Below, piece after piece: positions 7,682 through 29,289 of a DNA stretch of 30,241 nt. Under the pieces are notes generated by a model, which was given only the letters and a program-made list of their open reading frames with translations, searched no databases and had not been told where the DNA came from. Origin of the DNA: a virus; the IMG/VR virus record IMGVR_UViG_3300000304_000008, positions 69,363 to 99,603 of that record; one strand, 5' to 3'. The position numbers were made by a program, and so were the translations under genes. How positions within the stretch are numbered: the first letter of the stretch is position 1; every line of letters starts with the position of its first letter.

Positions 7682-10600
7682 TCAATCAAGTGAGTAAATA
7701 AAACTACTAGTATTACCTGTATATCTATATCCAATATGTAGACTATATAAACAATCAGTAGTATGTAGAACAGACCCGAATGCTCCATCAACTATATCTG
7801 GTACTAGCGATACTGCCCAATTAGTTGCATATGATGTACTAGTACTAGAATAATTTGCAGTCTACTCCATAACGTTTATTGAATTTACAGCCAACGCTTT
7901 ATATGCTAAAGAATATGACAAACCAGTTATAGTTTTTGATGAATTGCATGTCCATGCTCTTATCATATTACCAGCCGCATGAGGAAGATAAGTAGTATAT
8001 GTATCTGTAGATGTAATGTTAAAGAACGGTGTAACAAAATAAGTTACAATATTAAGAGGCGTAGTACCACTTAAAACAACATTTACAGAGAGATTTCCTA
8101 TAACTGGTGATATAGAAGGATATAATAATAGAACACTTGTACCCTAAACTCTAAACTTTAATGTATGGTTAGGAGCCAAAACGGCGGGCAATCCCCAAGG
8201 CTATATAGAATAATCACTAATACCGCCAGTAATACGAATTTTTAAACATTGACTAGCTAATGCGTAAAGTGAACTTCTATTTATCGCATTTAATGATGCT
8301 GGACCCATAGATAATTCAAATTCTCTACCACCACAATTAGCTACATTTATAGTAATAGTATTCATTGTCATGGATTGTCTTTCAGCAGTAGGACCTGCAA
8401 AATAAAAATGGGATGCAGTTTCATTTGCTAGTGTAATAGTAGCTGAACCAAAATTATACTATTTACTTTTAATAGTATTAGCACAATCTTGTGTTAATGA
8501 ACCTTTTATTGTAATGTTACCCTCAGTATCCCAGGTAATATTACCATTAGCTAATTGACCTGAACCATCATCATTAAAATAAGAAGAGCCAGCACCAAGC
8601 CAAACTTCACCAGTTTCACAGTTTAACAAATAATTAGGTCTAAATGAATTATTAGTGTTCATAGGATCAGATTTCTTAAACTCATCGTAGCTATTTGTAG
8701 TACCATCGCTAGAATTTTTTCCATACATACTAAATACAAACTCATCGTTAAATACCATTTCGCCGATAAGACCATTAGCAATAACGCCAACTTTAGTATA
8801 TATAGCTTCAAAATCTTCCATCAAAACCCACACATCTGTTCTTTGATTAGGATATGCGTTACCTTGGTTTGTACCCAACCAATCAAAAGTACCATTATAC
8901 ACATAGAAATTACCATCCTAAGTATCATATACATATGGTGCTTTTTCATCAGAATACTCGTATGTCTTCTTTACATCGTAAATACCAGCAGGATATATAA
9001 TCTAACTTCTGTTTACTTCAATAGAACCATCTAAACCATTAAGACCAGATAATCTCATCATCTACCAAGTACCACCTACAATGCCATCATCATCTGGATC
9101 TATTCTAGCTTGGATACACCATACATAAGGATATTGCACAGTAGTATCAGGTATTTCAGTAGACCAACCGGATGGGTATCTAGATTGTAGATTTGTAGGA
9201 CTATGATTAGCCTACGGAGCATCTTCTGTACCTAAAGAATATCGTATTTCAAAAGATATACCTGGTAAACCATCTACACCATCATGACCAGCAGGACCAG
9301 GATTACCGGTAGGACCCATTGGACCGACATCGCCTTGAGGACCTTGTGGACCTGTTTCACCACTAATTCTTACAGGGTCTGACCATGTACCATTAAGCGT
9401 ATCGTCAGAATTAATTAATGCTACAGTCATCCATAAGTATTGACCACTAGATAAATCGGGTGGATTTGTAGTCCAACCACTAGGAGTTCTAACACTATTT
9501 GTTAAAGAAGGGGGTTGAGTACTAGAAGTATTTGCTCTGAATCTAAATTCATATCGTTTACCATCTTGTGCAGTACCATCTCTACCATTAACGGGAATAA
9601 CTTCTGACCAAGAAATTACATAACCCGTAACACCATTTACTGTACCTATACATTGCCACCATTGACCGCTATCATCAGGATAATCTGACCATCCGCTTGG
9701 TAATGGATCTGTAGAGGTAGGCGCATTTGGTTTAGTATCAGATTTTTTATAGATATAAGTTTTCCAATTAGGCAATACCGCGTCTTCTCCATCTATCACA
9801 ACTGGTACTGTTTCAATATCTATTAACGTACTACCTTTATATAATTTAAATACTACTTTATTAGATATAGAAGAAGAATTGATAATAGAATTTATAGTAT
9901 ATGTACTTTCAGAACCACCGTCTAATGCTCTAGTTAATCGCATATTACTAGGCAACGAACTTAAACTAATTACATTATTACCGTCAATACTATTTACTCC
10001 ACAGGATACATGTGCATCAGAATATTGTCCTTGTTTATCTACTTTGATAACATTAACAGATGGACTCAATTGATACATGACAGCATTAATCCCATCCTTT
10101 AATTTAATAATTCTAAATACTATACTACGCTCGTAAACATTATTATTATATGTACCAGTAATTGTATAATTTATTTCAATAGTATCTGATGTACTAGAAG
10201 CAATAGATATGATAGTAGAAGTACCAGTCATCGCTACATTATTCACCGTTACACCACTTACCGGTGTATTAGTAATACCGGTAATCTATACATCTTCCGT
10301 ATCGTAATACATAAAAAATCGTATAGTTATTGGTAATCCATCTATTACATTGCCATCTTGGTCACACAATACTTGCGCCATTTCATTATCTATATCTAAT
10401 AGTACTGAACCAGCAGGACCTTGTGGTCCAACATTACCTGTAAGTTTAATAGGCGTAGTCCAATTAGATAATAAGGTTTCATCTCTACCGTGTATACGAG
10501 CAGAGGTCATCCATATGTAATAATTATCGGCTTCAACATATGGAACCTCAGTTGTCCAACCAGCAGGATTACGATTAGTTTCATCTAATTCAGGTGGAGT

Positions 10601-13077: not shown

Positions 13078-14061
13078 TTATTCTGCGCTACCTGAAACGA
13101 AAGCATCCAAATATGTTTTGAAAGCAGAGGAACTGAGACTACCTTCTTTAACATATAATTGTACTTCCATAGGAGTATCTTTATGATATTGATTGTCAGG
13201 TGATAAATAAATATTATCAGCTTCAATAATCAAGCAATCGTAATCAGTGTTTTCATCAACAACTTTATCCTGTACAATCATAGGATAAGCATCGATAAAT
13301 ACCATACCTTTATATCCCATGTTACGCATTTCAGCATCACGTACTTGCTTCCAATAACCTTTACCAGGAGTACCTGCAGCTTTAGTAATAGTTACACCAG
13401 GAACAGCTTCCGGAATGTTACTTAACAACGCACCAGGAATAGTAAAATACAACGATGCATCCATATTAACTACAGAATATTCGTTGATAGAATATTTACC
13501 TTCGTTATCATCCTTCTCCAATGCAGTCAAAGTAAGAGTAGTACTAGAAACAGATGCTGTTACACGACGTCCAGGATGCTTGTTAATCTGACTAGCCAAA
13601 GCATTCAACAGAGTTGCAGCATCAGTAGAAGTAGCTACTGTTTCATACGTATGGGTAAACTGACCCGGATGTTCGTATAAGTCGTTATAAACGATTCTTA
13701 GAACATAACGATAACCAGCAGTGATAGTAGCACCAGCAGCTGCAATAGTAATCTTCTGTTGTACGGGTTCTTCGTATTCAGTCAGAGTTACGTTACGAAT
13801 ACCATTTCTCTGAATATTTACACTAAATTCAATTTCCTTCTTATCTTCCAATGCACCAGTAGAAGGATTAGCTACCTTCATAGTACCTTTGCATAAACCA
13901 ACATAAATTGATTTAGCAGCAGCAGCCAAAGCTGCACTAGTAATAAGTTTTCTATTCTCGTCGAACAATGCAATTTCGCCAACGTTCAACGCATCAGTAT
14001 TGCTATACGATGCAGGACAATCTGCATTAGCAACGAGTACATAATTTACGTTTGTAATCAT
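13078..14061 (-). CDS. Abundant virion structural protein, probably crAss auxiliary capsid protein, 327 aa
   Basis: Uninterrupted Ala/Thr-rich ORF with no TAG. Size and position after the ring-type genes match the crAss-like gene order. Confidence 0.65.
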   Translation of the reverse strand: MITNVNYVLVANADCPASYSNTDALNVGEIALFDENRKLITSAALAAAAKSIYVGLCKGTMKVANPSTGALEDKKEIEFSVNIQRNGIRNVTLTEYEEPVQQKITIAAAGATITAGYRYVLRIVYNDLYEHPGQFTHTYETVATSTDAATLLNALASQINKHPGRRVTASVSSTTLTLTALEKDDNEGKYSINEYSVVNMDASLYFTIPGALLSNIPEAVPGVTITKAAGTPGKGYWKQVRDAEMRNMGYKGMVFIDAYPMIVQDKVVDENTDYDCLIIEADNIYLSPDNQYHKDTPMEVQLYVKEGSLSSSAFKTYLDAFVSGSAE

Positions 14062-17232: not shown

Positions 17233-18702
17233 TTACTCTGAAAGCATAATGAGCTCCCCACAAGCGCGCGGGTCTCTTAACATAATGCCCACTTCACCCA
17301 AAAAGTGAACGCTATAACCATCCTTCGCATTACTACGAACTTCAGTATTAGAGTGAGCATAACCAGCAGGTGTTACAGAACCAGCAGTACACCAGTTAAC
17401 GAATTCACGGTCTTTACGTACTACTTTAACTACGTTAGCTTCACCATCACGTCTACCAAGGTCAAGGAACGTAATACGATAAGATTCCAACGGTTTCAAA
17501 GTAACCGGATGCAATTGACGGTTGTAAGTAGTATTATCATACAACGGGAAATATTTTAACGTCAACTCAATACCATTAGTCATCTTATAAGTCTTGAACT
17601 GACCACCGAAAGTTAAGTTATCACCAGAACCAGTAACTAATACAGTATCAATTAAGTTCAGATTAGCCATCTTTTCTTTCAGTACACGGTCAAATTCACG
17701 CATACCCATTTCACCAGTGAAACCGATGAATTTACGTTCGTTAGTACCAAGTACGTTATAAGACAAATCTGCCAAGAAATCTTCCAACAGTTCAGCAGTC
17801 AAACGAGTATAATAACGTCTGTTAGACGGAGCAATTTGTTCCAACAAACCTGCACCAATCATAACCGGACGACCATTCTTACCTTTTAGATTGCAAGAAC
17901 CATCCTTATTAACATTACATTTGTTGTAAACCAAACCTCTTTCAAGACGACGATACCATTCACGCATAGCAACCCATTCCTGATACGGAGCCCACAAATA
18001 AGACGATTTACCAGTCTTCGGGTCTTTCAAAGCCACTGCCATAACAGTAGAGAAAGCGGAACCAGTAATATCATAGCTAAGACGTGCAGTCCACAAATAG
18101 TTACGCATCTTGAAGTGAGTGTTGTAGTTCAGGATATCAGCCTCTTCACTGTATTCTTCGTATGCAGAAGCAAGACGAGATACTTGGCAACCTGCCTTAA
18201 GATATTCAGCTGGTACATACGATGCAGGATTACCATTTGCAATGAAAGTCGTGTATACGTACAGATTACCATCTTGATACGGAGCATCAGCTACACGCAA
18301 TTGGAATTCTTTATTATCGAGTTCCAAAAGTGCACCTGGACCAAACCAGTTATCTTCCAACCACAGAATAATTGGTGTATTATTTAAACCAGCAGTTACA
18401 CCGTCTGTGATAGCAGCACCATTCCACTTAGCATCACGAATAGTAACAGCACGGTCTTGGTCAATCATTACACCCCATTCAAATGCCGGTTGGTCAATGG
18501 TAAGTACATTACCCAAACCACCAGTCAACATATCCAAAGAAGTCTGATAACCTTGGTCTTTAGTACCAAATACGTAAGACAAGATAGTACCTACTTCATA
18601 AGGTCTCTGCTGAGAAGCAATACTAATCTTATTAGTATCAATCAAATCAGAGAACCATTTACCTTTGTATAAAACTAGGTTATTAAGAATATTATTCTCC
18701 AT
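17233..18702 (-). CDS. Major capsid protein (crAss-like), 489 aa
   Basis: Longest TAG-free ORF, with codon use typical of high expression. It follows an acidic scaffold-like gene. Features such as GAGLLEQI, TGEMGMREF and the C-terminal GIMLRDPRACGEL resemble crAss-like MCPs. Confidence 0.9.
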   Translation of the reverse strand: MENNILNNLVLYKGKWFSDLIDTNKISIASQQRPYEVGTILSYVFGTKDQGYQTSLDMLTGGLGNVLTIDQPAFEWGVMIDQDRAVTIRDAKWNGAAITDGVTAGLNNTPIILWLEDNWFGPGALLELDNKEFQLRVADAPYQDGNLYVYTTFIANGNPASYVPAEYLKAGCQVSRLASAYEEYSEEADILNYNTHFKMRNYLWTARLSYDITGSAFSTVMAVALKDPKTGKSSYLWAPYQEWVAMREWYRRLERGLVYNKCNVNKDGSCNLKGKNGRPVMIGAGLLEQIAPSNRRYYTRLTAELLEDFLADLSYNVLGTNERKFIGFTGEMGMREFDRVLKEKMANLNLIDTVLVTGSGDNLTFGGQFKTYKMTNGIELTLKYFPLYDNTTYNRQLHPVTLKPLESYRITFLDLGRRDGEANVVKVVRKDREFVNWCTAGSVTPAGYAHSNTEVRSNAKDGYSVHFLGEVGIMLRDPRACGELIMLSE

Positions 18703-18739: not shown

Positions 18740-19891
18740 TTAAGATATACGTAGTCTTTTTGTAAAATTATCCCAGATAGTAGAATCATCAGAACGATTT
18801 GCTCTTGTAGTCTGTTTTGTTTTGCCACTTACTGAAGTAGACCGCAAACTCTATTTGAACTTATCTATTGCTGAGTTATTACCTTCTCTCTTAGCAGCTT
18901 GAATCAATTTATCTGCATTTTTAGTAAAATAAGCAGATTCAATTAAATTCTTTACACCACCTTTAATATAATCAGACTGATATTTAGTTTTACCATCTGC
19001 GCCAGGCTTAAATATATAATCTATTAATTCACGTTTATCTTTTTCAGGAATAGATATACCACGTATATTTTTTAAATCTTTTATTTCCGCCACAACGTTA
19101 TCATAAAATTCCTGTTGTTGCTTTTTATATTGTTTAAAAGCCTTTTCCTAATCAGCCAATAGCTGTTCCTTTTTCTATTGTCTAATCTCTTTTAAATCTT
19201 CCAATGCATCCTAAGCTTCATCTTCAAGTAAGCCTGCATCTTCATATTTACTAATTTTCTTATCAATTTGTTTTTGACTAAATCCTTTTTCTTTAAGTAA
19301 GGCTTTTACTATTATTTTTTGAGAACCTTCGTCTTCTAAATCAATACCATCTAAATCAATTTCAGCATCTATTTTTAGATAATCTTGCAACTTACCACCT
19401 TGTTTCACAAAATTATCTAACTATTCTACTTCTTCACTAGCATAAGTAGGCTTACTTTCTTCTTCAATAATATTCTAAAAGTAATCAATTAGACTTTCGA
19501 TAGTATTTGGTTTTTCTTCATTTTCATCAAATTCCCATCCTAATTTTTCGGAAATAGCATCAAAGAATCCACCTACCATTTGTTCTTCATCAAAAGATGG
19601 TTCTTCAATATCTTCTTTAATTTCATTTTCTTTTGTTTCAGGTTCTTTAATATTTTTATTATTTTCTTCGTCTTGCTCTTCTTTATCTTCTTTTTCTTCT
19701 TTCTTTGTATTTTTTACTTGTTTAAGAGCAGGCTCTTCTTGATTGTTTTTAATTTCTTCAAGTTCGTCATCTGTTACAGAACCTTTTTCGTTATTATCTA
19801 TAATTTCTTCAGTTTCTTCTTTATTTACTTTGGGGACAAACGAATCAAATATTGCTTCAAATCCACCCAATGTATTCTTATTTTCTTCCAT
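18740..19891 (-). CDS. Acidic putative capsid scaffolding protein, 383 aa (TAG read-through)
   Basis: Joins 19475..19891, 19211..19408 and 18851..19093 through six TAGs. Has a Glu/Lys-rich disordered N-terminus and lies immediately upstream of the MCP. Confidence 0.7.
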
Positions 19892-19902
19892 AATTAAATA
19901 AT

Positions 19903-21675
19903 TTAATTAGAATCTTTTTCTTGTGAATAATTGTAAATGATAGGTGTAATAGCACCAGACATTCTCTATCTTTGTCTAGATTTACTTAATAAATACTACT
20001 ATTCTTCAGGAGTTAAAGTAGTTCTAGAATTAGATTTTAATTCATCGACTATACCATCAGTACCGTTTTCAAATTTTCCCAATATGTGCAACCACATATT
20101 ATTATTTAATTTTAGTATTGGTTTAAGTAATTTGTTCTTTCTACTATTTAAATTTTCTCTAAGAGTTAACTCGTAATCATAATCAGTTTTAGTGGCAGGC
20201 ATACCATATCTATAAGCATCACTAGTAGAGGTTATATTTGGTTGTGAACGGAATCTTGCAAATCTAACGAAATCTCCAAAACTATTTCCAGGTCTATATC
20301 CTTCAAATAACTATGATTCTAATTCTGGCTAAGATTCTACCCCATTTAAAGCCCATCTACCTTTTTTATTAACATTAGTATATGTTGTATTCTAATCAAC
20401 GATATTCAATAATTGCTGATTAGGTTCTTCTGCAAAATATGCTCTTTCATATCCCGGTAGTAACGCTCCTGTCCTTGTTGTATATTGTGCTTCTTTTGCT
20501 ATAAACCCATTTTTAGCCAAAGTCTTATAATCTGGACTAGCAAACAAATCATAAGGATAAATACTACGTCTAAAGTTACGTAATTGTTGCTCTATAGGCA
20601 AAGTTTCGTCATTTATATACGGGTATCTAACTAGAGCAACATCTGCTCTAGAAGGTCTAACGTCTGCAACATCTCCCATTGGTCTACTAAACCTGTCGGC
20701 AATTTCACCACTATTCGATACATATATACCAGTATGACCAGTATTCAACCTATCTCCACCAGTACGCTCACGACTTGTATTAACTGTCAACGCTTCGTTA
20801 ACAATATCGTTTATATTTTTTTGCTAAGCTACCTAAGGAGAAAAACTTACTCCTCTAACTGCTGTTGTATTTTTAGTTAAGTACTAATTTACCGCTTCTT
20901 GAGATAATGGATTTAACTATCGATTATTTAATATAAACTAAGCATAATTGGGGTCTTCGTTTATTATGTCGGTAATATGCTATATCTACCAATCATCATA
21001 ATTATATGTATCTCTTAAGAAATTTAATTCATCCTATAATTTATCTTCATCTAACTTTGCTGCTTGTTGAGCATTGCGATATTTGTCTATAGTCTACTTA
21101 TTAATTTGCTTTCTTACTTCTGGATGTTCAGTTGTATAATATTTATTGAAAATATTACCGTAAACATCTCTTAAATCTTTAATTTTATCTTCTACAAAGT
21201 TATATTCTGTCTATCTTCTACGATTATAAGGTTTTAATTCTTTAATTAAATTTATATTTCTCTTTAGTTTTCTACCAAATCTTCTTAATGGTTTTTCTAT
21301 AATATTTGGTAAAGCTGCTAAAACTAAACCTGTAGCTCCTGCCAAATATTCTTCATTTGCAAAATCTTTTGCAACATCGTAAACTCCTTTAATGTCACCA
21401 ATTACTGGAACATAATCGATAACATCTTCAGGACCAATTCTGGTCTATTTACCCCAAGCATCTAGCATAGCAGAATTATAAGCATCCTAATCAAACGGTT
21501 TATTGATATAATTACCGTTTGGAGTTACAACTACTTCTGGTAATACAGTGTTAGTCACTTCGTCTGTACCTTCAGCATATTTATTAGCTTTCCACTACCA
21601 ATAAGATAAGCTAGGGTTTGATTCCCTAGCCTACTTATATTCATTCATGTACTATCTAAATTCATTTCTATTCAT
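19903..21675 (-). CDS. 590-aa putative capsid cargo/effector with pre-toxin-TG-like segment and ADP-ribosyltransferase-like motifs (TAG read-through)
   Basis: Single frame with about 20 TAGs and no TAA/TGA, including track ORFs 20392..20790 and 19999..20202. Motifs: IDYVPVIGDIKGVYDV, AVRGV, GIYVSNSGEIADRF, GYERAYF. The ORF is solid; the function is inferred. Confidence 0.6.
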
Positions 21676-21826
21676 AAAGTCTATTTGATATTAAATTAGC
21701 AGCAATATTCATAGCAAAATCATTTAAATTAGCTTCAGGTGAATCTAATCTCTATGATAACTATAATAATAATAAATAAATTCTTTCAAGAAGCTCTCTG
21801 TCACTTAAGGTATTTAAACCATCCAT
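21662..21826 (-). CDS. Small hypothetical protein, 54 aa (TAG read-through)
   Basis: MDGLNTLSDRELLERIYLLLLQLSQRLDSPEANLNDFAMNIAANLISNRLYEQK. Fills the gap and overlaps both neighbours. Confidence 0.5.
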
Positions 21827-22118
21827 AGTGTTTTCTATTATTTAAATATTCTAAATTATTTTCATTATTATAAGCTTCTTGTTCAAAGGAAATATTGCGA
21901 TAAGCATTACCTTTCTTAAATAATCTTATAACCCATTCTACTATATACCAGACATAAAAGAATATGTATAACATTTCTTTCATCTGAACAGTATGAATAG
22001 ATTCATGATTTAAATCCTATTCAGATATTTTAGCTCCTTCTCTAACAAACAATATACCAAATAAGTTTATTGCTTTATAACCAGGAAACGGTATTATTTT
22101 ATTTTCTATTATCTTCAT
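21801..22118 (-). CDS. Small HExxH zincin-like putative metallopeptidase, 105 aa (TAG read-through)
   Basis: MKIIENKIIPFPGYKAINLFGILFVR...LNHESIHTVQMKE...AYRNISFEQEAY shows HExxH plus a downstream ExEA third-ligand motif. Confidence 0.75.
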
Positions 22119-22119
22119 A

Positions 22120-22344
22120 TTAATGTTTCCATTTAGAAGCATTCTTAGCGAATACTGCTTTCTTTACCATAGCTTTGCTATATTTATCCTTATTTGCTAA
22201 AACTTGTTTAGCAAAAGCCTAAACAGATTTACCATGTTTTTTAGCTGCTGCTGTGAAAGTACCTCTTTTAGATTTTTTAATATGTATGGTACCTCCGTCA
22301 GAATAGCACATTATTAAATTACTATTTTTAATAGAGTGTTTCAT
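22120..22344 (-). CDS. Small basic protein, 74 aa (absent from ORF track; one TAG)
   Basis: MKHSIKNSNLIMCYSDGGTIHIKKSKRGTFTAAAKKHGKSVQAFAKQVLANKDKYSKAMVKKAVFAKNASKWKH. TAATG overlap at the start. The IHIK..RG.FT...FA.NA.KWKH pattern resembles small crAss-like virion proteins. Confidence 0.75.
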
Positions 22345-22406
22345 TACTTACCTCCTTTACCACCTTTTCCTTTACTACCACTTTTCTTTCCACCTTTACA
22401 TGCCAT
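22344..22406 (-). CDS. 20-aa Gly/Lys-rich peptide MACKGGKKSGSKGKGGKGGK
   Basis: Fills the gap after the portal gene, is preceded by AAAGGAGGTGT, and its TAA overlaps the next ATG. Confidence 0.65.
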   Translation of the reverse strand: MACKGGKKSGSKGKGGKGGK

Positions 22407-22428: not shown

Positions 22429-24939
22429 TTATTTTTTACTTTCGCCAACTACTCTATTTTTTAATGCTGTACGAGCTTTAAGTTTTTCTCTTTCCATCGC
22501 TGCTTTATCACTCATACGTTGCAGTTCAGTTTCATGCTTCATACGTTCTCTTTCGAGTTGAATCTTTTTATTTTCAATCTCTTTCTTGTTTTCAGATTCA
22601 CGCATTTTAGCATTAAATTCAAATTGTTTAGAAGCCTCGTCTGATGCCTGTTTACGTTCATCTAATGCTTGTTTAGCTATTTCCATTGGATCAGGTATAC
22701 CGTTAGCATTCTAATCCATATTTTCAGAACCTCTATAAGCATTCAATTGAGCAACAGTAATCTTAGTTTGAGCATCGGTATCAATCTTATATTTTTCAAG
22801 ATCCATTTCAGCTTCTTTAATCATCAGCTCTTCTTCTTTGACTCTATTTTGTTCTTCTACTAATTGGCGTTGGGCTTCTTGTTCTGCTTGTTGCTGTTCC
22901 TGCATTTGTTGCATACGCTTATTCTCAATTTCTTCAAGACGTTGCTTAATTTCATTAACATTATCCATAGTAATAATTTCAGCAATATCTAATAAACTAG
23001 CACCGTTTTGCATAGCAGGTTGCATTAATTGTCTTAATTGCTCCAACTCATTTCTTTCTTTAGTAGAATCATCTACGAATATATCCATGTCTTCATAGAA
23101 GAAAGAATCACTTAGAGTTACAAAAGCTCTAGTAGCATCATCGAGTATGTAATTTAATACTGTTTTATTATCTTTCCAAGCATATCTAGCTGTATCTAAT
23201 AACATAGTAAGAACCTGTTTCTTTACTTGATTGTGTGTCCAGAACCATGGTTCAGTAATGTGATAAGATTGAGTAATAGCCTGATTAACATTACCCACTA
23301 ATTCATTAGCCGCAACGGAACCTTGTCTTTGTGGTGTAATACCAGTAAGTCTAGCTACCATATCTTCAATCTTAGCCATAAGATTAATGTATTGGTCTAT
23401 TACATTAGCCATACTTAAATCCCAAGCCTAGAATTGATTAAATGAAGCAGGTTTACCACCTTCTCTACCAGGTATATCCCAACCATCTTCATACGGATTA
23501 ATAAATGCTACACCTAATGCAGATAAATAGTGCATCCACTTATTAATATCAATACCCATATTTTTAGGTATCTAAGTAACATCAATAACAGGTACTTTGC
23601 CTTTGTCTCTAGCCATCGCTAATTCTAGACGATACCATATAACAATATACATATATTGTAAAGGTTTCATCATACTAACCAAACTCTTGGGTCTACTATT
23701 GGTATTATTATAAACCGCACCAGTATAAGGTAATTTCTATGAATTTGGATTATCAGCAGATATGTGTTGATATTCTATAGGCTATATACCAAAATATAAA
23801 GCATCTTCGCCTTCTCCAGCTCTATATCCTTCCCATACTTCTACAATCCAATCCCAGGTTACATCTATTTCTTCGCCTGTTATTTGATAACTTTCGTCTA
23901 CTTGAAACTCTTCTACTTCACCAGTTTCAAAGTTAGTTAAAGTAACGAAACCTATCTTTTTAAAAGATTTCCAACAAGTATGATAAACGTTTAATTGGTC
24001 TGAATCAAACGGATCATTAGTATACATATTAATTCTATGCATATCTACGTGATTGTAATCTAATTCAGATTTCTCCATTCTAGGATAATTACCAACACCA
24101 GGTTTAGCATCAATTAAATCTAATAATCTATTTAATTGCTTTTCATCTAGTTTATCATAGAACCTATCGTAGATTTCAGTAGGATTCATTACCATCAATC
24201 TACAGCACCAAGAAGCGTCTTGTATAAATTCTAAATCTACAGAATGTTCGTAATCAAAGAACATTGGATTTACTCTTTCTACATAAGGCTGACCATTCAG
24301 TATACCAATATAATATTCTTCTTCACCGCCTATTAATGCATCTTTCCAACCTTTATAGAATTCATGAGTAAGATTTAATTTCTTTTTTAAATATTTTAAT
24401 GATAAGTATGCAGCTCTTTCTGCAATATCTTTATAATCTTTAGTTACATATTTCTATATAGCTTCAGGTTGCATTACTTCACCACTAGCTAATTGCTGCT
24501 AATACTATACTTGATTTTCAGGACTTAAATTAGCCATAATACTAGCCATTATATAATCTACCAATAACGATTTTAACTATTCTTGAACTTCACTAGCAGC
24601 TTCATTACTAGTTCTACATACTTGAAAATTAAATGGTCTTTTAGTTTCCTCACCAAGTAACTAGTCAATATAAGGTTTAATTATATTATAATCCTATGCT
24701 GTAGCAGGGAAACCATCTTTTTGTTTAAACGGATTTGTAACATACTTTAAATCTTTTTCATTATATATACTATTGTATAGGTCATAGTATGTCTACATTT
24801 CTGACGTACGTTCAGTATTAAATCCGTATACACCTACGTTACCTGCACCAATAATATAATTTACACAATCTCTTTTCCACTATTCTGTTTTCTTTCTAGC
24901 AGGTAGTTTTTGTATTGGAAATGATTTAATATCTAACAT
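22429..24939 (-). CDS. Portal protein, 836 aa (TAG read-through)
   Basis: Joins 23782..24264, 22711..23412 and 22429..22686 in one frame. Starts FPIQKLP...WKRDCV, includes YNIIKPYIDQLLGEE and EVWEGYR, and has a long coiled-coil C-terminus. Directly follows terminase. Confidence 0.9.
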
Positions 24940-24941
24940 AA

Positions 24942-27900
24942 TTAATTACTAAATGTATATACATTATCTTCAACTACTGCACCGTCAGATAGTTCTGATT
25001 CACCCCATCCCTGCGCAAAGATAGGACCGTCGAACAGTAATCTACTTTTATTTGCTTTCTCTTTTTCTTTTACAGTGACATTAAACAATTGTTCCCTATA
25101 AATCATCAATTGCATCATTGCCATTACTCTATCAACGTTAACTATATCGTTGTAAGCAATTAATTCTTCGATTAATGGTTCTGATAATATATGGTATAAA
25201 TTCTTAGTACCATCGACGTTTATTTCATTTAACCAGTCTTTTATTAGACCTTCACCCCAAGCTTTTATTTGCTTGTTCATATGGCAACCTTTTTTACGAT
25301 TAACAGTAGATTTACTAACTACTATATCACTAATTATATCAGGCTAATCTGCCAATAGATATTCACAATGTTTGCTAGTAAAATAAACAAATAAACCTTT
25401 ATTCTGATTTTCATACATTGCAGTAGCATTATAGTATATAAGTAGTTTGCGTACATTCTCATAGAATTCTTCAGCTGTATTTGGTCTACCAGTATATTCA
25501 GCTACTATAATATCAGAATAAGATTCTATAGACTATACACGTTTATATATTATACAAGAGCCTAATGAATTAGTACCCGACTAATCATAATCATAAGAGT
25601 CTATACCAGCAATGTATAAACCATAAGGTGCATTTTTCATAGGGTGTTCCCATATTACTATAGAACCTGTTGGGTCATCATCTTTCTTTAAAGGATAATG
25701 TGTAATATCACCTGTTTTCTTAATAATCCAACGAAGTTGACCATCTCCTGTCTGGATTAAATCACCAACTTGTTTATAATTCTATAGCTCTTTATTAGTA
25801 CGTATTCTAGATAATTGCTCTTGTAATTCTTTTTTAGGGAATATATTACCACCAAATTCAAGACATGCTTCTTGAGGAGTACATGCATGTTCTGCAACAT
25901 ATCTATCTACTGCAACAGTATTAGTAGCTGCTGATATTACTTTACGTCTTTCTTCAAGTATAAACTCTAGAGATTGTTTTAGTAGAGTATTACCATCTTT
26001 ATCCATATAAAGACGTTTACCATCTTTATCACGTATATCTAAATTAGTATACTGTGGTATAAAGAAACCACATTTAGTGCCGTTAGCAGATTCATCCCAT
26101 ATGTTTTCAAACTCCATACAGTTATAACCGTCTGGATTATAAAACATATCTCTTAGTGTTTGAAAGTGAGAATCTTCATCACCACCAGTATTATGTGTAA
26201 CAATACCGTTTACAATATAATTATTTTGTTCATTAGCGGTTAAATTATATATTTTCTAAACGCCTATGTCTTCAATTTTAATAATACGCTCAGCGTGAAT
26301 ACCTGATACATATTTATGATACTTGGCTAAGTGATTCTAAGCAAATAAATAAATTAAATCTAATGCAGATTGTTTATAGTCGACGCGTAATTCAATATTA
26401 TCTGCGAATTTACTTACAGAAGTAATATCGTTAATTTCTAGACGCCATTCTCCATTCTTGCTTTTTATTAATCTACCGTTAGAATAATGCTCCCTATTAT
26501 CTGATTTTATATGCCTAACAGAGCAATGTATACCAAAATGTAGCAATACTTCTTGTACTTGTAATAATATTTCTTTTTGACATTGCGCCAGAATAATTCT
26601 CACTCTACCATCTTTATCTACTCTAATATATCCATCTGTGTCAAACAAACCACCTATTAACTCAGTTAAAGTATATCTATCGTACGTATGAATATCTAAA
26701 GGTAATCTCTTTTTATCTTTTGTTTGACCATAAATACCTAGTTCTCTAAGTTGTTTACATATACCTTTTATACGAATTTCTTTGTATTCTTTACCTTCTT
26801 TTGTAGTGTATTCTTTTTCTATCGCTGTGTCAAAATTACCTAAAATATAATCAATTACGTTTTTATCACAATTGGCTATTCTTGGTGTCTTATCGTAACC
26901 GTAAGTACCGTCACCTATAAGCCAACCAATTAATCTTGGTTCCCACATTTTCTTTTTACCAAAATAAGGAATCTCGTCTATAATACCTACTTGGTCACCA
27001 ACTTTACACAAATCAGCTCTGTGCCACAACCAAGATTTCATACGCTAATTTTCGTTACGCTTACCCGGCACTCTTTTTGTTTTACCTGGTGTAGACCACA
27101 ATAACGGATGGTCTATACTACACTCTATACTTCTACCAGAATTAGTAGTTATACGTAAGCAAGATTTCTCAGAAGGTGGGTTTATATTTGATATATTTTG
27201 TGGGCAAGCCTGATAAGTATCCCAGCCCATTATACCGTCTTCAAATGTTATATCTTCCACGTTAACGCAGTTACCTTCAGCTGTCCATACTCTAGAGCCT
27301 GCGCAAACACAACCAAATGCAATCATAGTACCAAACGCAATACCATCTTGTTCTACAGAAGGTCGAGCAATTTGCCATGCTGCACCTAATTCACTAAAAG
27401 AACCAGCTTCTTCAAATATAATTAATTTACCTGCTTTACCACGCACTACATCAGGATTATCTTTTAAAGTAACACCAATTATTTCTGATTTATAACCCAG
27501 TTCTACCTCGTTACCAAATTCATCTTTAGTATAAAAACCAGCTCTTTTACGCATAGTAGTATTTACACTACGCTTTTTACCCCATGCCGTATTTTTATCT
27601 ATAAAGTCCATATAGTCCCACGCTTTAGTAAGAATACCATCTTCAGTAAGATACTATTTGTTACTTGCATAAATATACGTTTTACTACCAGGTATTAGAT
27701 AATAATTTCTGCACGCCATTGATGCATTCTTATATGAATAACCCTTTCTACGGCTTTTTAGTACACACAAATGCTTACCTTCTTCTTCTGCATCATTTAC
27801 AGATTGAAAAAAGTAAGCATCATAATCGTAGAAATCTGGAAATTCTAATCGTCTTGATTTCTTAATTTTACCATTTATTACTTCGTAGACTATTCTCTAA

Positions 27901-28118
27901 ATAGGACAAAAATTGATATAAAAATAATTATAACCAGATATATAATCTCCATCTTTAGTTCTATACCCATCTAAGCATCTCCTTTTCTATTCATCCCAAT
28001 ACTGAAAGTATTCAGTAGTATTGATAGCATAATTACAATACTAGCCAGTCTACTCGAAGTGAATAGCTGGCTCACGGAATTTATCTGTATTTTTAAATCT
28101 TTTTGTAAAGTCTACCAT
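24942..28118 (-). CDS. terL: Terminase large subunit precursor, 1058 aa including intein (684 aa spliced; TAG read-through)
   Basis: Walker A-like LKSRRKGYSYK, Walker B LIIFEEAG, FG|TGG motif split by an intein, nuclease YIAGIDSYD, and C-terminal NVDRVMA. Four track ORFs lie in one frame. Confidence 0.93.
26190..27311 (-). mobile_element. Intein with LAGLIDADG homing endonuclease in terL, 374 aa
   Basis: N-terminal CVCAGSRVWT, block B IECSIDHPLL, LAGLIDADG motifs LIGWLIGDG and LIGGLFDTDG, C-terminal YIVNGIVTHN followed by Thr (+1). Confidence 0.93.
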
Positions 28119-28248
28119 AATCTTTCCAGATTTGTATATAATTATTACTATAAATTTCTTCTTTTGAGTGATTCATTAGATATGATACTCTATCTGAAAA
28201 TTCAAATAATTTAATAATGTATATGTGTGAAAAATCGTCGTATACCAT
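28093..28248 (-). CDS. Small hypothetical protein, 51 aa
   Basis: MVYDDFSHIYIIKLF...RLYKKI. The start is placed downstream of the terminator and the end overlaps the terL start. Confidence 0.45.
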   Translation of the reverse strand: MVYDDFSHIYIIKLFEFSDRVSYLMNHSKEEIYSNNYIQIWKDYGRLYKKI

Positions 28249-28260
28249 ATTAATGCAAAT

Positions 28261-28306
28261 AAAAAACCTCCCCGTTTCTACTGGGGGAGTAGGGGTTGGG
28301 GAGGTT
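28261..28306 (-). terminator. Intrinsic terminator downstream of the tRNA pair
   Basis: AACCTCCCC...GGGGAGG stem with inner CTACT/AGTAG, followed by TTTTTT on the minus strand. Confidence 0.8.
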
Positions 28307-28334
28307 AATGATTGATTTTTCATTTAACTTGTAG

Positions 28335-28404
28335 TTGCGGACTCCGACTCGAACGGAATCTTGAGATTATGAGCCTCAAATGCTATCCTTTGCACCAATC
28401 CGCG
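28335..28404 (-). tRNA. tRNA with CAU anticodon (initiator-Met-like)
   Basis: CGCGGAT-TG-GTGC/GCAT D arm; TGAGG-CTCATAA-TCTCA anticodon arm; TCCG-TTCGAGT-CGGA T arm; GTCCGCA-A. C1:A72 mismatch, CCA not encoded. Confidence 0.85.
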
Positions 28405-28411
28405 ATATTAG

Positions 28412-28484
28412 TCGCCCCCGCAGGATTCGAACCCGCACCTACTGGGTTAGAGCCAGTCTTGCTACCATTACAAATTAGAGGGCA
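28412..28484 (-). tRNA. Amber-decoding tRNA, anticodon CUA (probable tRNA-Gln)
   Basis: TGCCCTC/GGGGGCG acceptor; ACTGG-CTCTAAC-CCAGT anticodon arm (CTA at 28450-28448); GCGGG-TTCGAAT-CCTGC T arm. U1 with a weak first pair, as in tRNA-Gln. Confidence 0.92.
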
Positions 28485-28588
28485 ATGCACGTGGTTCTTT
28501 AAAGACTGCCACGTTAAAGTCTACCTATAACTCAAATTACAATATTCTCTGTTTTCGAACCGCACAGCAGATAAGCGGATATTATTTT

Positions 28589-28726
28589 TTAACCAAATAT
28601 TCTTTTATACCAAGGTTTTTTAGGCATACCTAACTGTTTACGAGCATTTAAATCAGTTTTAACTGCGATAATAATTTCATCAAAAGTATTGCAATCAGTA
28701 AGGTCTAATACGTATTCTTTCTTCAT
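28589..28726 (-). CDS. Small hypothetical protein, 45 aa
   Basis: MKKEYVLDLTDCNTFDEIIIAVKTDLNARKQLGMPKKPWYKRIFG, ending in an amphipathic KKPWYKRIF tail. Confidence 0.65.
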   Translation of the reverse strand: MKKEYVLDLTDCNTFDEIIIAVKTDLNARKQLGMPKKPWYKRIFG

Positions 28727-28761
28727 AACGCTAAATATATTTTATAGTTTAATTTATTGTA

Positions 28762-29289
28762 TTACTTATTCAACTCGTATGGATTAATTTCGTTGTTACC
28801 GCGTACTTTAACTGTTTCTAATTCTTCGGATTTAACAGCTTTCTCTAAGAAGTCTATAGTTTGAAAAGTACCTTTAACTTTTTCCATACCTGCTAATAAC
28901 ACTTGAATCTTCTTTTCATCAAGTTCTTCACCTAAAGATTCTTCATAATAAGAAGAGATAGTATCGATTTTATTTCTCATTGCATTAAGCATTTTGAGAT
29001 TTCTAGTATTCATCAATAGATTAAATTCATCTCTGCATACTTGCTCAATAACGCTAAGTTTATAATCTTGTTTCCCGAATTTTTGTTTCTTTAACACTTT
29101 TTCTCTATCTTCGAGAGACATACTTTTTACATACGGACTATTCCAGTAATCACAAAGTATTATAAAACTTGCTACATCATCAGCATGAGCTTTATCTTCA
29201 GTTGACTCATAGAACTTTTTAAAAGGCGGTAGTGCCCACATATTAGCGTGGACTACTACCTTATCTCCAATTATATCAAACAGCTTCAT
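28762..29289 (-). CDS. Conserved hypothetical protein, 175 aa (possible terminase small subunit)
   Basis: MKLFDIIGDKVVV start in a TAATG overlap. Helical, and close upstream of terL. The TerS idea rests on position and size only. Confidence 0.55.
   Translation of the reverse strand: MKLFDIIGDKVVVHANMWALPPFKKFYESTEDKAHADDVASFIILCDYWNSPYVKSMSLEDREKVLKKQKFGKQDYKLSVIEQVCRDEFNLLMNTRNLKMLNAMRNKIDTISSYYEESLGEELDEKKIQVLLAGMEKVKGTFQTIDFLEKAVKSEELETVKVRGNNEINPYELNK

Follow-up and report, generated by a model that had tools for sequence, protein, structure and literature searches.

Polyvalent proteins of phages are multi-domain effectors encoded with late or packaging genes; they comprise ADP-ribosyltransferase (ART), zincin and lysozyme domains and, according to prediction, enter the virion and are injected, and their own zincin may process them (Iyer et al., 2017, PMC5512222). 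Similarly, ARTs encoded beside portal, terminase or capsid genes, or fused to head proteins, were inferred to be packaged in the head (PMC9503650; PMC5512222; PMC5576092). The phage ΦcrAss001 contains a cargo of about 5.5 MDa, presumably ejected in an unfolded state, and no homologue of its protein gp46 is present in Suoliviridae (Bayfield et al., 2023, PMC10172136). Together with gp45, gp46 is expected to form a transmembrane channel, and no enzyme domain was named in this description (PMC10172136). In the present study, we analyzed a stretch of 30,241 nucleotides (the window) of the virus record IMGVR_UViG_3300000304_000008, in which a gene located at 19903-21675 on the minus strand (-), hereafter the target gene, encodes a protein of 590 amino acids (aa). 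We consider, with a probability of roughly 55%, that this protein belongs to a polymorphic multi-cassette cargo family of Suoliviridae-type crassviruses and bears an ART-like effector that would be packaged in the head and injected.

The window forms the right end of a virus record of 99,603 bp that is complete and terminally repeated. Its major capsid protein (MCP) is 86% identical to that of Afonbuvirus cr6_1 (Suoliviridae), and by its sequence the virus is a Suoliviridae-like gut crassvirus (crAss-like phage). Among the phages of the human gut, crassviruses are the most abundant and, to our knowledge, their cargo has been experimentally mapped only for ΦcrAss001. The lack of gp46 homologues in Suoliviridae leaves room for another set of cargo proteins. 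The target gene lies after the portal gene (22429..24939, -; phrog_6547 at 2.8e-165), from which it is separated by small genes, and before a gene of 383 aa (18740..19891, -) that precedes the MCP gene (Crass_capsid; 17233-18702, -; identified by Pfam and PHROGs).

Translation of 19903-21675 with genetic code table 11 breaks the interval up, the longest piece being 132 aa. When TAG is read as glutamine (TAG=Q), the same interval (19903..21675, -) is a single frame from ATG to TAA, with 590 codons and 21 in-frame TAGs. This agrees with the original prediction, made from the letters of the stretch, of a hidden 590-aa frame with about 20 TAGs, about 15 of them before or at the start of the putative catalytic region (15 are found in residues 1-284). 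The strings and positions that it gave all check as well, with the leader up to KYAEG at residues 1-36, IDYVPVIGDIKG...AALP at residues 86-123 (21307-21420) and the three putative catalytic residues at the places given below. Several lines of evidence indicate that the recoding of TAG to glutamine is real, namely a suppressor tRNA with anticodon CTA (28411..28484, -), the large minus-strand genes of the window, which are all open only under TAG=Q, and a codon alignment with an 86%-identical orthologue, in which TAG faces TAG 9 times, is replaced by CAA or CAG 8 times and replaces CAA twice. The target gene is a late gene, and it is translated only with the UAG suppressor of the phage itself. 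Theta ribozymes were reported next to suppressor tRNAs in gut phages (PMC10879173); an Rfam search over 28200-28800 returned two tRNAs only, and no HDV-like or other ribozyme family beside the suppressor tRNA.

Homologue searches returned 54 proteins at E <= 0.001 in a set of 5.8 billion proteins and 180 in a set of 1.8 billion; a module scan over 203 collected proteins was combined with a multiple alignment and pairwise mapping. According to the latter, different homologues match different portions of the target protein. Its leader (residues 1-38; 21562..21675, -; consensus M.R.eFRqrM.qYKqAREsNPqLsYW.WK..kY..Gtd) heads 116 of the 203 proteins, the bodies of which are otherwise different. A second copy of the leader was sought in the six frames of the genome and none was found; this single occurrence speaks against a multi-gene tag system in this phage. 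The cassette itself starts with a strand, LPEVVVTP (residues 45-52; 21520..21543, -), of the type L[PD]E[VI][VT][VI]T[PAG], which is present in 62/203 family proteins, opens cassettes in variants such as LDEVVVTA and MDEVVITA, and has a single occurrence in the six-frame translation of the genome. It is followed by a segment at residues 84-130 (DYVPVIGDIKG...AGATGLVLAALP; 21286..21426, -), modelled with a predicted local distance difference test (pLDDT) score below 50, that recurs before several modules. In the module scan, this PxxGD segment precedes the ART-like, zincin, P8mid and P10mid modules as well as several unassigned modules of 280-330 aa, and its position ahead of many unrelated domains gives it the appearance of a pre-toxin linker. 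Its sequence would resemble the pre-toxin TG (PT-TG) domain, as put forward in the original prediction, but hmmscan with Pfam PT-TG at E <= 10 gave no match for residues 75-140, residues 1-160 or three relatives, a search in which the HMMER filters may drop very weak matches. The position of the segment fits the earlier suggestion by analogy, and it is in this sense that we use "PT-TG-like".

Downstream of the ART-like domain, a junction module (residues 534-578; 19942..20076, -; FENGTDGIVDELK...QRQRMSGAITP) is 80-90% identical between proteins with unrelated middles, and in relatives it stands ahead of a second PT-TG-like segment and a zincin module. In the target this zincin module is deleted, so that only AITP|IIYNYSQEKDSN remains at the deletion site and the protein ends with the C-terminal tail IIYNYSQEKDSN and the stop (19903..19941, -). 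In-frame deletions in P0001, P0002 and P0008 have three different end points and retain the same tail. A common grammar appears from these comparisons: a YxxGTD junction, a strand of the LPEVVVTP type, a PxxGD/hydrophobic segment and then an exchangeable domain. The core Suoliviridae gene found in this slot (cr53_1 gp89, cr115_1 gp19; ~370 aa) consists of leader, PxxGD segment, zincin and tail; by this comparison, the target gene has gained an ART-like cassette and lost the zincin. P0008 presents the frame of the target around another middle, with a weak ART-PolyVal match (24 bits, below the cut-off). The 86%-identical orthologue used above, of 1184 aa, is encoded in the IMG/VR contig L001 and comprises the leader, a cassette X1, the ART-like cassette (to which the 86% identity refers), the junction, the zincin and the tail, and thus three cassettes including the zincin, as compared with a single predicted enzyme domain in the target copy. 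Its cassette X1, of 281 codons, is flanked by a 47-nt direct repeat (L001:8085-8131 and 8928-8974; 87% identical) that encodes KANKYxxGTDEITNTT. Recombination between the two copies would yield the N-terminal arrangement of the target, which suggests that the repeat is a ready-made site for the gain or loss of cassettes. The closest reference phage, cr6_1, retains merely a C-terminal fragment of the zincin module; in its RefSeq annotation (L002 7261-7759), a "hypothetical" gp20 and an overlapping "transcriptional regulator" gp19 cover this leftover fragment. Taken together, the alignments indicate that relatives differ by the exchange, gain or loss of cassettes at junction sequences that are repeated, inside a fixed frame of leader, junction and tail. 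A conserved N-terminus with swapped domains, proposed earlier as the mark of such a family, is what we observe, with the twist that the C-terminal tail and the junction are kept too and that it is the middle that is exchanged.

The middle of the target protein is formed by the ART-like domain (residues 255-490; 20206..20913, -) and by a helical domain that always accompanies it (residues 131-254; 20914..21285, -; helices with pLDDT 66-97), and in most homologues the PT-TG-like segment and the ART-like domain lie about 105-160 residues apart. In a trimmed alignment of 64 sequences, R274 (AVRGV; 20854..20856, -), in strand 1 (271-278), is present in 62/62 ungapped homologues. S320 (GIYVSNS; 20716..20718, -), at the end of strand 2 (317-320) and ahead of a helix (323-329), is found in 64/64. 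E410 (PGYERAYF; 20446..20448, -), in strand 5 (405-413), is Glu in 61/64 and Gln in the three others (3/64). Further conserved residues are D308, Y318 and Y398 (64/64 each), N321 and F329 (62/64) and R440 (61/64). Both the strand-1 Arg and the aromatic-x-S-[TN]-S pattern are present (AVRGV and GIYVSNS, with family consensus SxRGV and LYTSNS), and the model places a helix after S320, as in ARTs. Judged from these sequences, the R/S/E pattern is not a product of chance.

The AlphaFold2 model of the whole protein is confident over residues 130-530 and disordered over residues 31-130. As the fold search with this model was swamped by matches to long helices, the domain (residues 255-490) was folded alone, with a pLDDT of 89.7. 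Submitted to Foldseek against the PDB, it returned, as the 46 top-ranked of the matches listed, ART-fold structures, among them PARP1, diphtheria toxin, NatT, cholix and ExoA, with E values that are weak (0.016-0.14). The named matches in a viral structure library were PARP-like or ART-PolyVal-like. In the ESM Atlas, the best scores obtained with the homologue P0005 were 0.87-0.88, under the 0.9 level, and one cluster carried ART-PolyVal on 19% of its members, which we treat as a lead only. Searches by sequence were less informative: for the 590-aa protein, tblastn against 50,697 phage records yielded nothing of use, a profile search in the 5.8-billion set added only four new, unnamed proteins, and there was no ART family among the 25 families listed for 67 domain homologues. 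The fold check suggested in the original prediction has returned ART-fold matches, and we accept a predicted ART fold for the domain, with an NAD+ site that is probably functional, the fold scores being modest. The R-S-E assignment made there stands in part: an ART-like fold is predicted and the very R, S and E that it named show complete or nearly complete conservation in the family, but the [QE]-x-E motif is missing. With a triad of R-S-E type that lacks this motif, the domain could act on protein, on nucleic acid or simply on NAD+.

Packaging in the head and injection are inferred by analogy, from gene position, from peptidoglycan-hydrolase fusions in homologues and from literature precedent. 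The portal-MCP slot and the conservation of the leader, which resembles an address signal, and of the tail are indirect evidence for delivery, and 9/67 domain homologues also bear a lysozyme, glucosaminidase or M15 peptidase domain. Peptidoglycan-hydrolase domains of this kind are typical of virion proteins that act at entry. In the mechanism that we propose, the leader, perhaps with the tail, would direct the protein into the procapsid beside the portal. The protein would come out of the capsid in unfolded form, together with the DNA or before it. In the new host the ART-like domain would refold and, early in infection, either spend NAD+ on the modification of a host macromolecule or degrade NAD+ itself. 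The zincin of the core family may cut the cassettes apart; lost in the target, it could be replaced in trans by a small zincin encoded nearby or by the peptidase of a polyvalent protein of the same phage. Such an effector would need no immunity gene since the producing cell is already doomed. Consistent with the earlier remark on this point, no small gene follows the target: the next gene, that of 383 aa, starts 12 nt past the target stop. In cr6_1, cr53_1 and cr115_1, all without the ART-like cassette, a gene of similar length occupies the same place (position and length being what was compared), which argues that the 383-aa gene is not an immunity gene.

Several observations weigh against this reading. 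The strand-5 motif [QE]-x-E, characteristic of classical R-S-E toxins, is absent, the sequence being P-G-Y-E-R with Gly two positions before E410. No match to the 590-aa protein was found in Pfam (E <= 0.1), PHROGs, NCBIfam or the sequences of the PDB (searched with phmmer and with a profile). When the domain family was compared by hhalign with 7 aligned ART-PolyVal sequences from this genome and relatives, the probability was 0.1%, a negative that is weak because the template is small. On the side of delivery, we found no virion proteomics in the literature for any Suoliviridae phage, and the cargo of ΦcrAss001 known from virion mass spectrometry consists of other proteins, i.e., gp45, gp46 and RNA-polymerase proteins.

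Alternatively, the protein could be a structural part of the ejection machinery (ejectosome or channel) in the role of the gp46 missing from Suoliviridae, the ART-like domain being then a non-catalytic scaffold or binding module. Homologues fused to peptidoglycan hydrolases, a similar domain in the pre-ejectosome of cyanophage A4 that was described without an enzymatic role, and the low-confidence, flexible residues 31-130 with their hydrophobic stretch are all compatible with such a part. We nevertheless regard it as improbable: polar residues are invariant at the canonical catalytic positions of ARTs (R274, D308, Y318, S320, N321, E410 and R440), and the ART-like module is dispensable and interchangeable in close relatives, unlike an essential part of a channel.

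Another explanation keeps the enzyme but not its delivery. The protein would be active with NAD+ inside the producing cell, late in infection and unpackaged, where it may counter NAD+-based defence, modify phage or host proteins in assembly, or deplete NAD+. The conserved leader and tail around exchangeable middles, the location of the gene in the portal-MCP slot, which is the usual place of head-associated effector genes (PMC9503650), and the homologues fused to peptidoglycan hydrolases make this rather unlikely in our view, even if the gene is late and its product made only once the suppressor is available, NatT and MbcT, two toxins of the NADase/phosphorylase kind, are among the ART-fold neighbours, and the packaging of the protein rests on inference.

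The density of TAG in the target gene was originally read as a possible genetic-code safety lock. The enrichment is real, with 3.56 TAG per 100 codons, the highest value in the window and the fourth in the whole genome, and with TAG forming 62% of the Gln codons vs 32% in other late genes (Fisher p = 6.5e-4). Moreover, the ratio of TAG to CAR (CAA or CAG) is 15:4 in the first 284 codons vs 6:9 afterwards (p = 0.03). It is however not unique to the target. The denser genes are two small late genes (4.5 and 5.2 TAG per 100 codons; 88% and 73% of Gln codons) and a polyvalent gene of 1773 aa (4.17 TAG per 100 codons; 61% of Gln codons; p = 3e-9), and the MCP gene (17233-18702) and a gene of 327 aa (13078-14061) contain none (0 TAG per 100 codons; 0%). 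The polyvalent gene lies outside the window (G000:C1:31774-37095, -) and counts 1773 codons and 74 TAGs; it encodes ART-PolyVal (G000:36385-36834; 75 bits, above the cut-off) and then a zincin with an HExxH motif (AYMHELLHH). The code is also split by strand and timing, the plus-strand early genes (780-31725) being almost free of TAG and the minus-strand late genes using it.

A dedicated lock that blocks a toxic enzyme before the late switch would account for the TAG share of the target, for the similar share in the other ART-bearing gene and for the concentration of TAGs in the first 284 codons. We consider it doubtful and the safety-lock idea unsupported: one TAG suffices to block translation and nearly all late genes, already dependent on the suppressor, have several; two small late genes are denser than the target; and TAG swaps with CAA or CAG at 10/19 aligned Gln sites of the orthologue, as near-neutral synonymous drift predicts. 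The absence of TAG from the high-copy MCP and from the 327-aa gene means that the TAG share more simply follows expression inversely, and a cell infected by a lytic phage will perish in any case. The density, which the other effector gene shares, seems rather to go along with low expression or a relaxed choice of codons; given the interchange of TAG with CAR and the fact that a single TAG already makes a gene suppressor-dependent, we read it as relaxed codon choice in low-copy genes. The attractive idea of a toxin lock is thus tempered, and the excess shared by both effector genes still merits a wider test.

Less probable still, the domain would be no relative of ARTs, its fold likeness and R/S/E pattern being convergent or an artefact of the model, which fits poorly with fold-search lists that are almost purely ART-fold rather than mixed and with matches that span nearly the whole C domain of diphtheria toxin and bring R274, Y318 and E410 near its H21, Y54 and E148 (an estimate from aligned ranges, not a residue-level superposition).

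The other genes of the head block complete the picture. Between the portal and the target genes, a protein of 113 aa (21801..22142, -; phrog_15610 "protease", 2.5e-42) is a zincin with an HExxH motif (HESIH) and a hydrophobic stretch; it is a candidate for the trans-acting processing enzyme. Its gene was also considered as a piece of the deleted zincin module, and this was rejected, as it encodes a separate small HExxH protein. Relatives have a "protease" annotated right behind the portal, an observation on annotation only, made without sequence comparison to the 113-aa zincin. Between the portal and this small zincin, a basic open reading frame of ~74 aa (MKHSIK...YSDGGTIHIKK...KWKH; ~22120-22345, -) contains YSDGG, a string similar to the YxxG[GT] junction of the cargo proteins. 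The large terminase TerL (24942-28118, -; Pfam and PHROGs) is interrupted by an intein that bears a LAGLIDADG endonuclease (Pfam matches to LAGLIDADG_3, 2.6e-12, and to Intein_splicing, 1.2e-08). The names "RecX" and "RecA" given to neighbouring head-block genes in the records of relatives (L002 cr6_1, L003, L004) look like annotations from weak hits.

A bolder proposal, which we put forward as a long shot, concerns the preamble of the cassettes. The LPEVVVTP-type strand resembles the TonB boxes of outer-membrane transporters and colicins, and in group B colicins the TonB box pairs with TonB. The preamble could then be an import device: after ejection into the periplasm, the LPEVVVTP/LDEVVVTA strand would act as a TonB box and pair with Bacteroides TonB, the PT-TG-like hairpin, rich in glycine and hydrophobic, would insert into the inner membrane, host energy would pull the enzyme cassette into the cytoplasm, and a phage zincin would cut at the YxxGTD junctions into separately delivered effectors. 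If true, the cargo of crassviruses would be a phage-borne, colicin-like, plug-and-play system of toxin delivery.

With injected cargo as the preferred reading, the locus provides Suoliviridae with a candidate injected-effector system of clear grammar (leader, junction, pre-domain segment, exchangeable enzyme and tail), and it adds a new sequence family of predicted ART-fold enzymes, in which three residues offer themselves for mutation. Provided that packaging does occur, leader and tail could serve to load chosen proteins into crassvirus capsids, and the repertoire of cassettes would be a catalogue of how crassviruses take over or disarm Bacteroidales. To speak of an undescribed system, as was done in the original prediction, is overstated, since head-associated ARTs and polymorphic effectors of the polyvalent and MuF types were already described (PMC5512222; PMC9503650; PMC5576092). 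We found no earlier description of the carrier (leader, junction, LPEVVVTP strand, PT-TG-like segment and tail), of the exchange of cassettes in a fixed frame, of the ART-like sequence family or of its occurrence in Crassvirales; "crAss" is not mentioned in two reviews on ARTs, and a literature search on the occurrence in Crassvirales gave nothing relevant.

Compared with ΦcrAss001, in which gp45 and gp46 are encoded elsewhere with respect to the portal (gp20) and the MCP (gp32), no homology of these two proteins to the target was found. T4 Alt, an ADP-ribosyltransferase that is packaged in the head and injected and that bears an N-terminal capsid-targeting sequence, follows the same logic as proposed here, from an N-terminal address through packaging in the head and entry together with the DNA to the NAD+-dependent modification of host proteins (PMC9503650); unlike T4 Alt, to which no sequence relation was detected, the target is modular and swappable. 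The MuF polymorphic toxins share with the target a gene position close downstream of the portal, a conserved N-terminal carrier and toxin-like domains that vary, ARTs among them (Jamet et al., 2017, PMC5576092). Unlike them, the target has no MuF domain (Pfam, PHROGs) and no immunity gene, its variable part is internal and, whereas MuF toxins belong to temperate phages, there is no prophage context in this terminally repeated virus record. As in the PT-TG linkers of bacterial polymorphic toxins, a short, hydrophobic, PxxGD- and G-rich segment stands directly N-terminal to unrelated domains (Zhang et al., 2012, PMC3482391), but the segment of the target is without Pfam match even at E <= 10. 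As regards the polyvalent proteins, relatives of the target have up to three cassettes including a zincin, the target copy has one predicted enzyme domain and its gene lies between portal and MCP, and the same phage encodes a separate, classical polyvalent protein. The ART-like domain of the target differs from their ART-PolyVal (PF18760), with no Pfam match, an hhalign probability of 0.1% and residues of the R-S-E rather than the H-Y-D type. Unlike those of polyvalent proteins, the cassettes of the target family sit within a fixed frame of leader and tail, where a junction that is repeated, an LPEVVVTP strand and a preamble of PT-TG-like type mark their limits.

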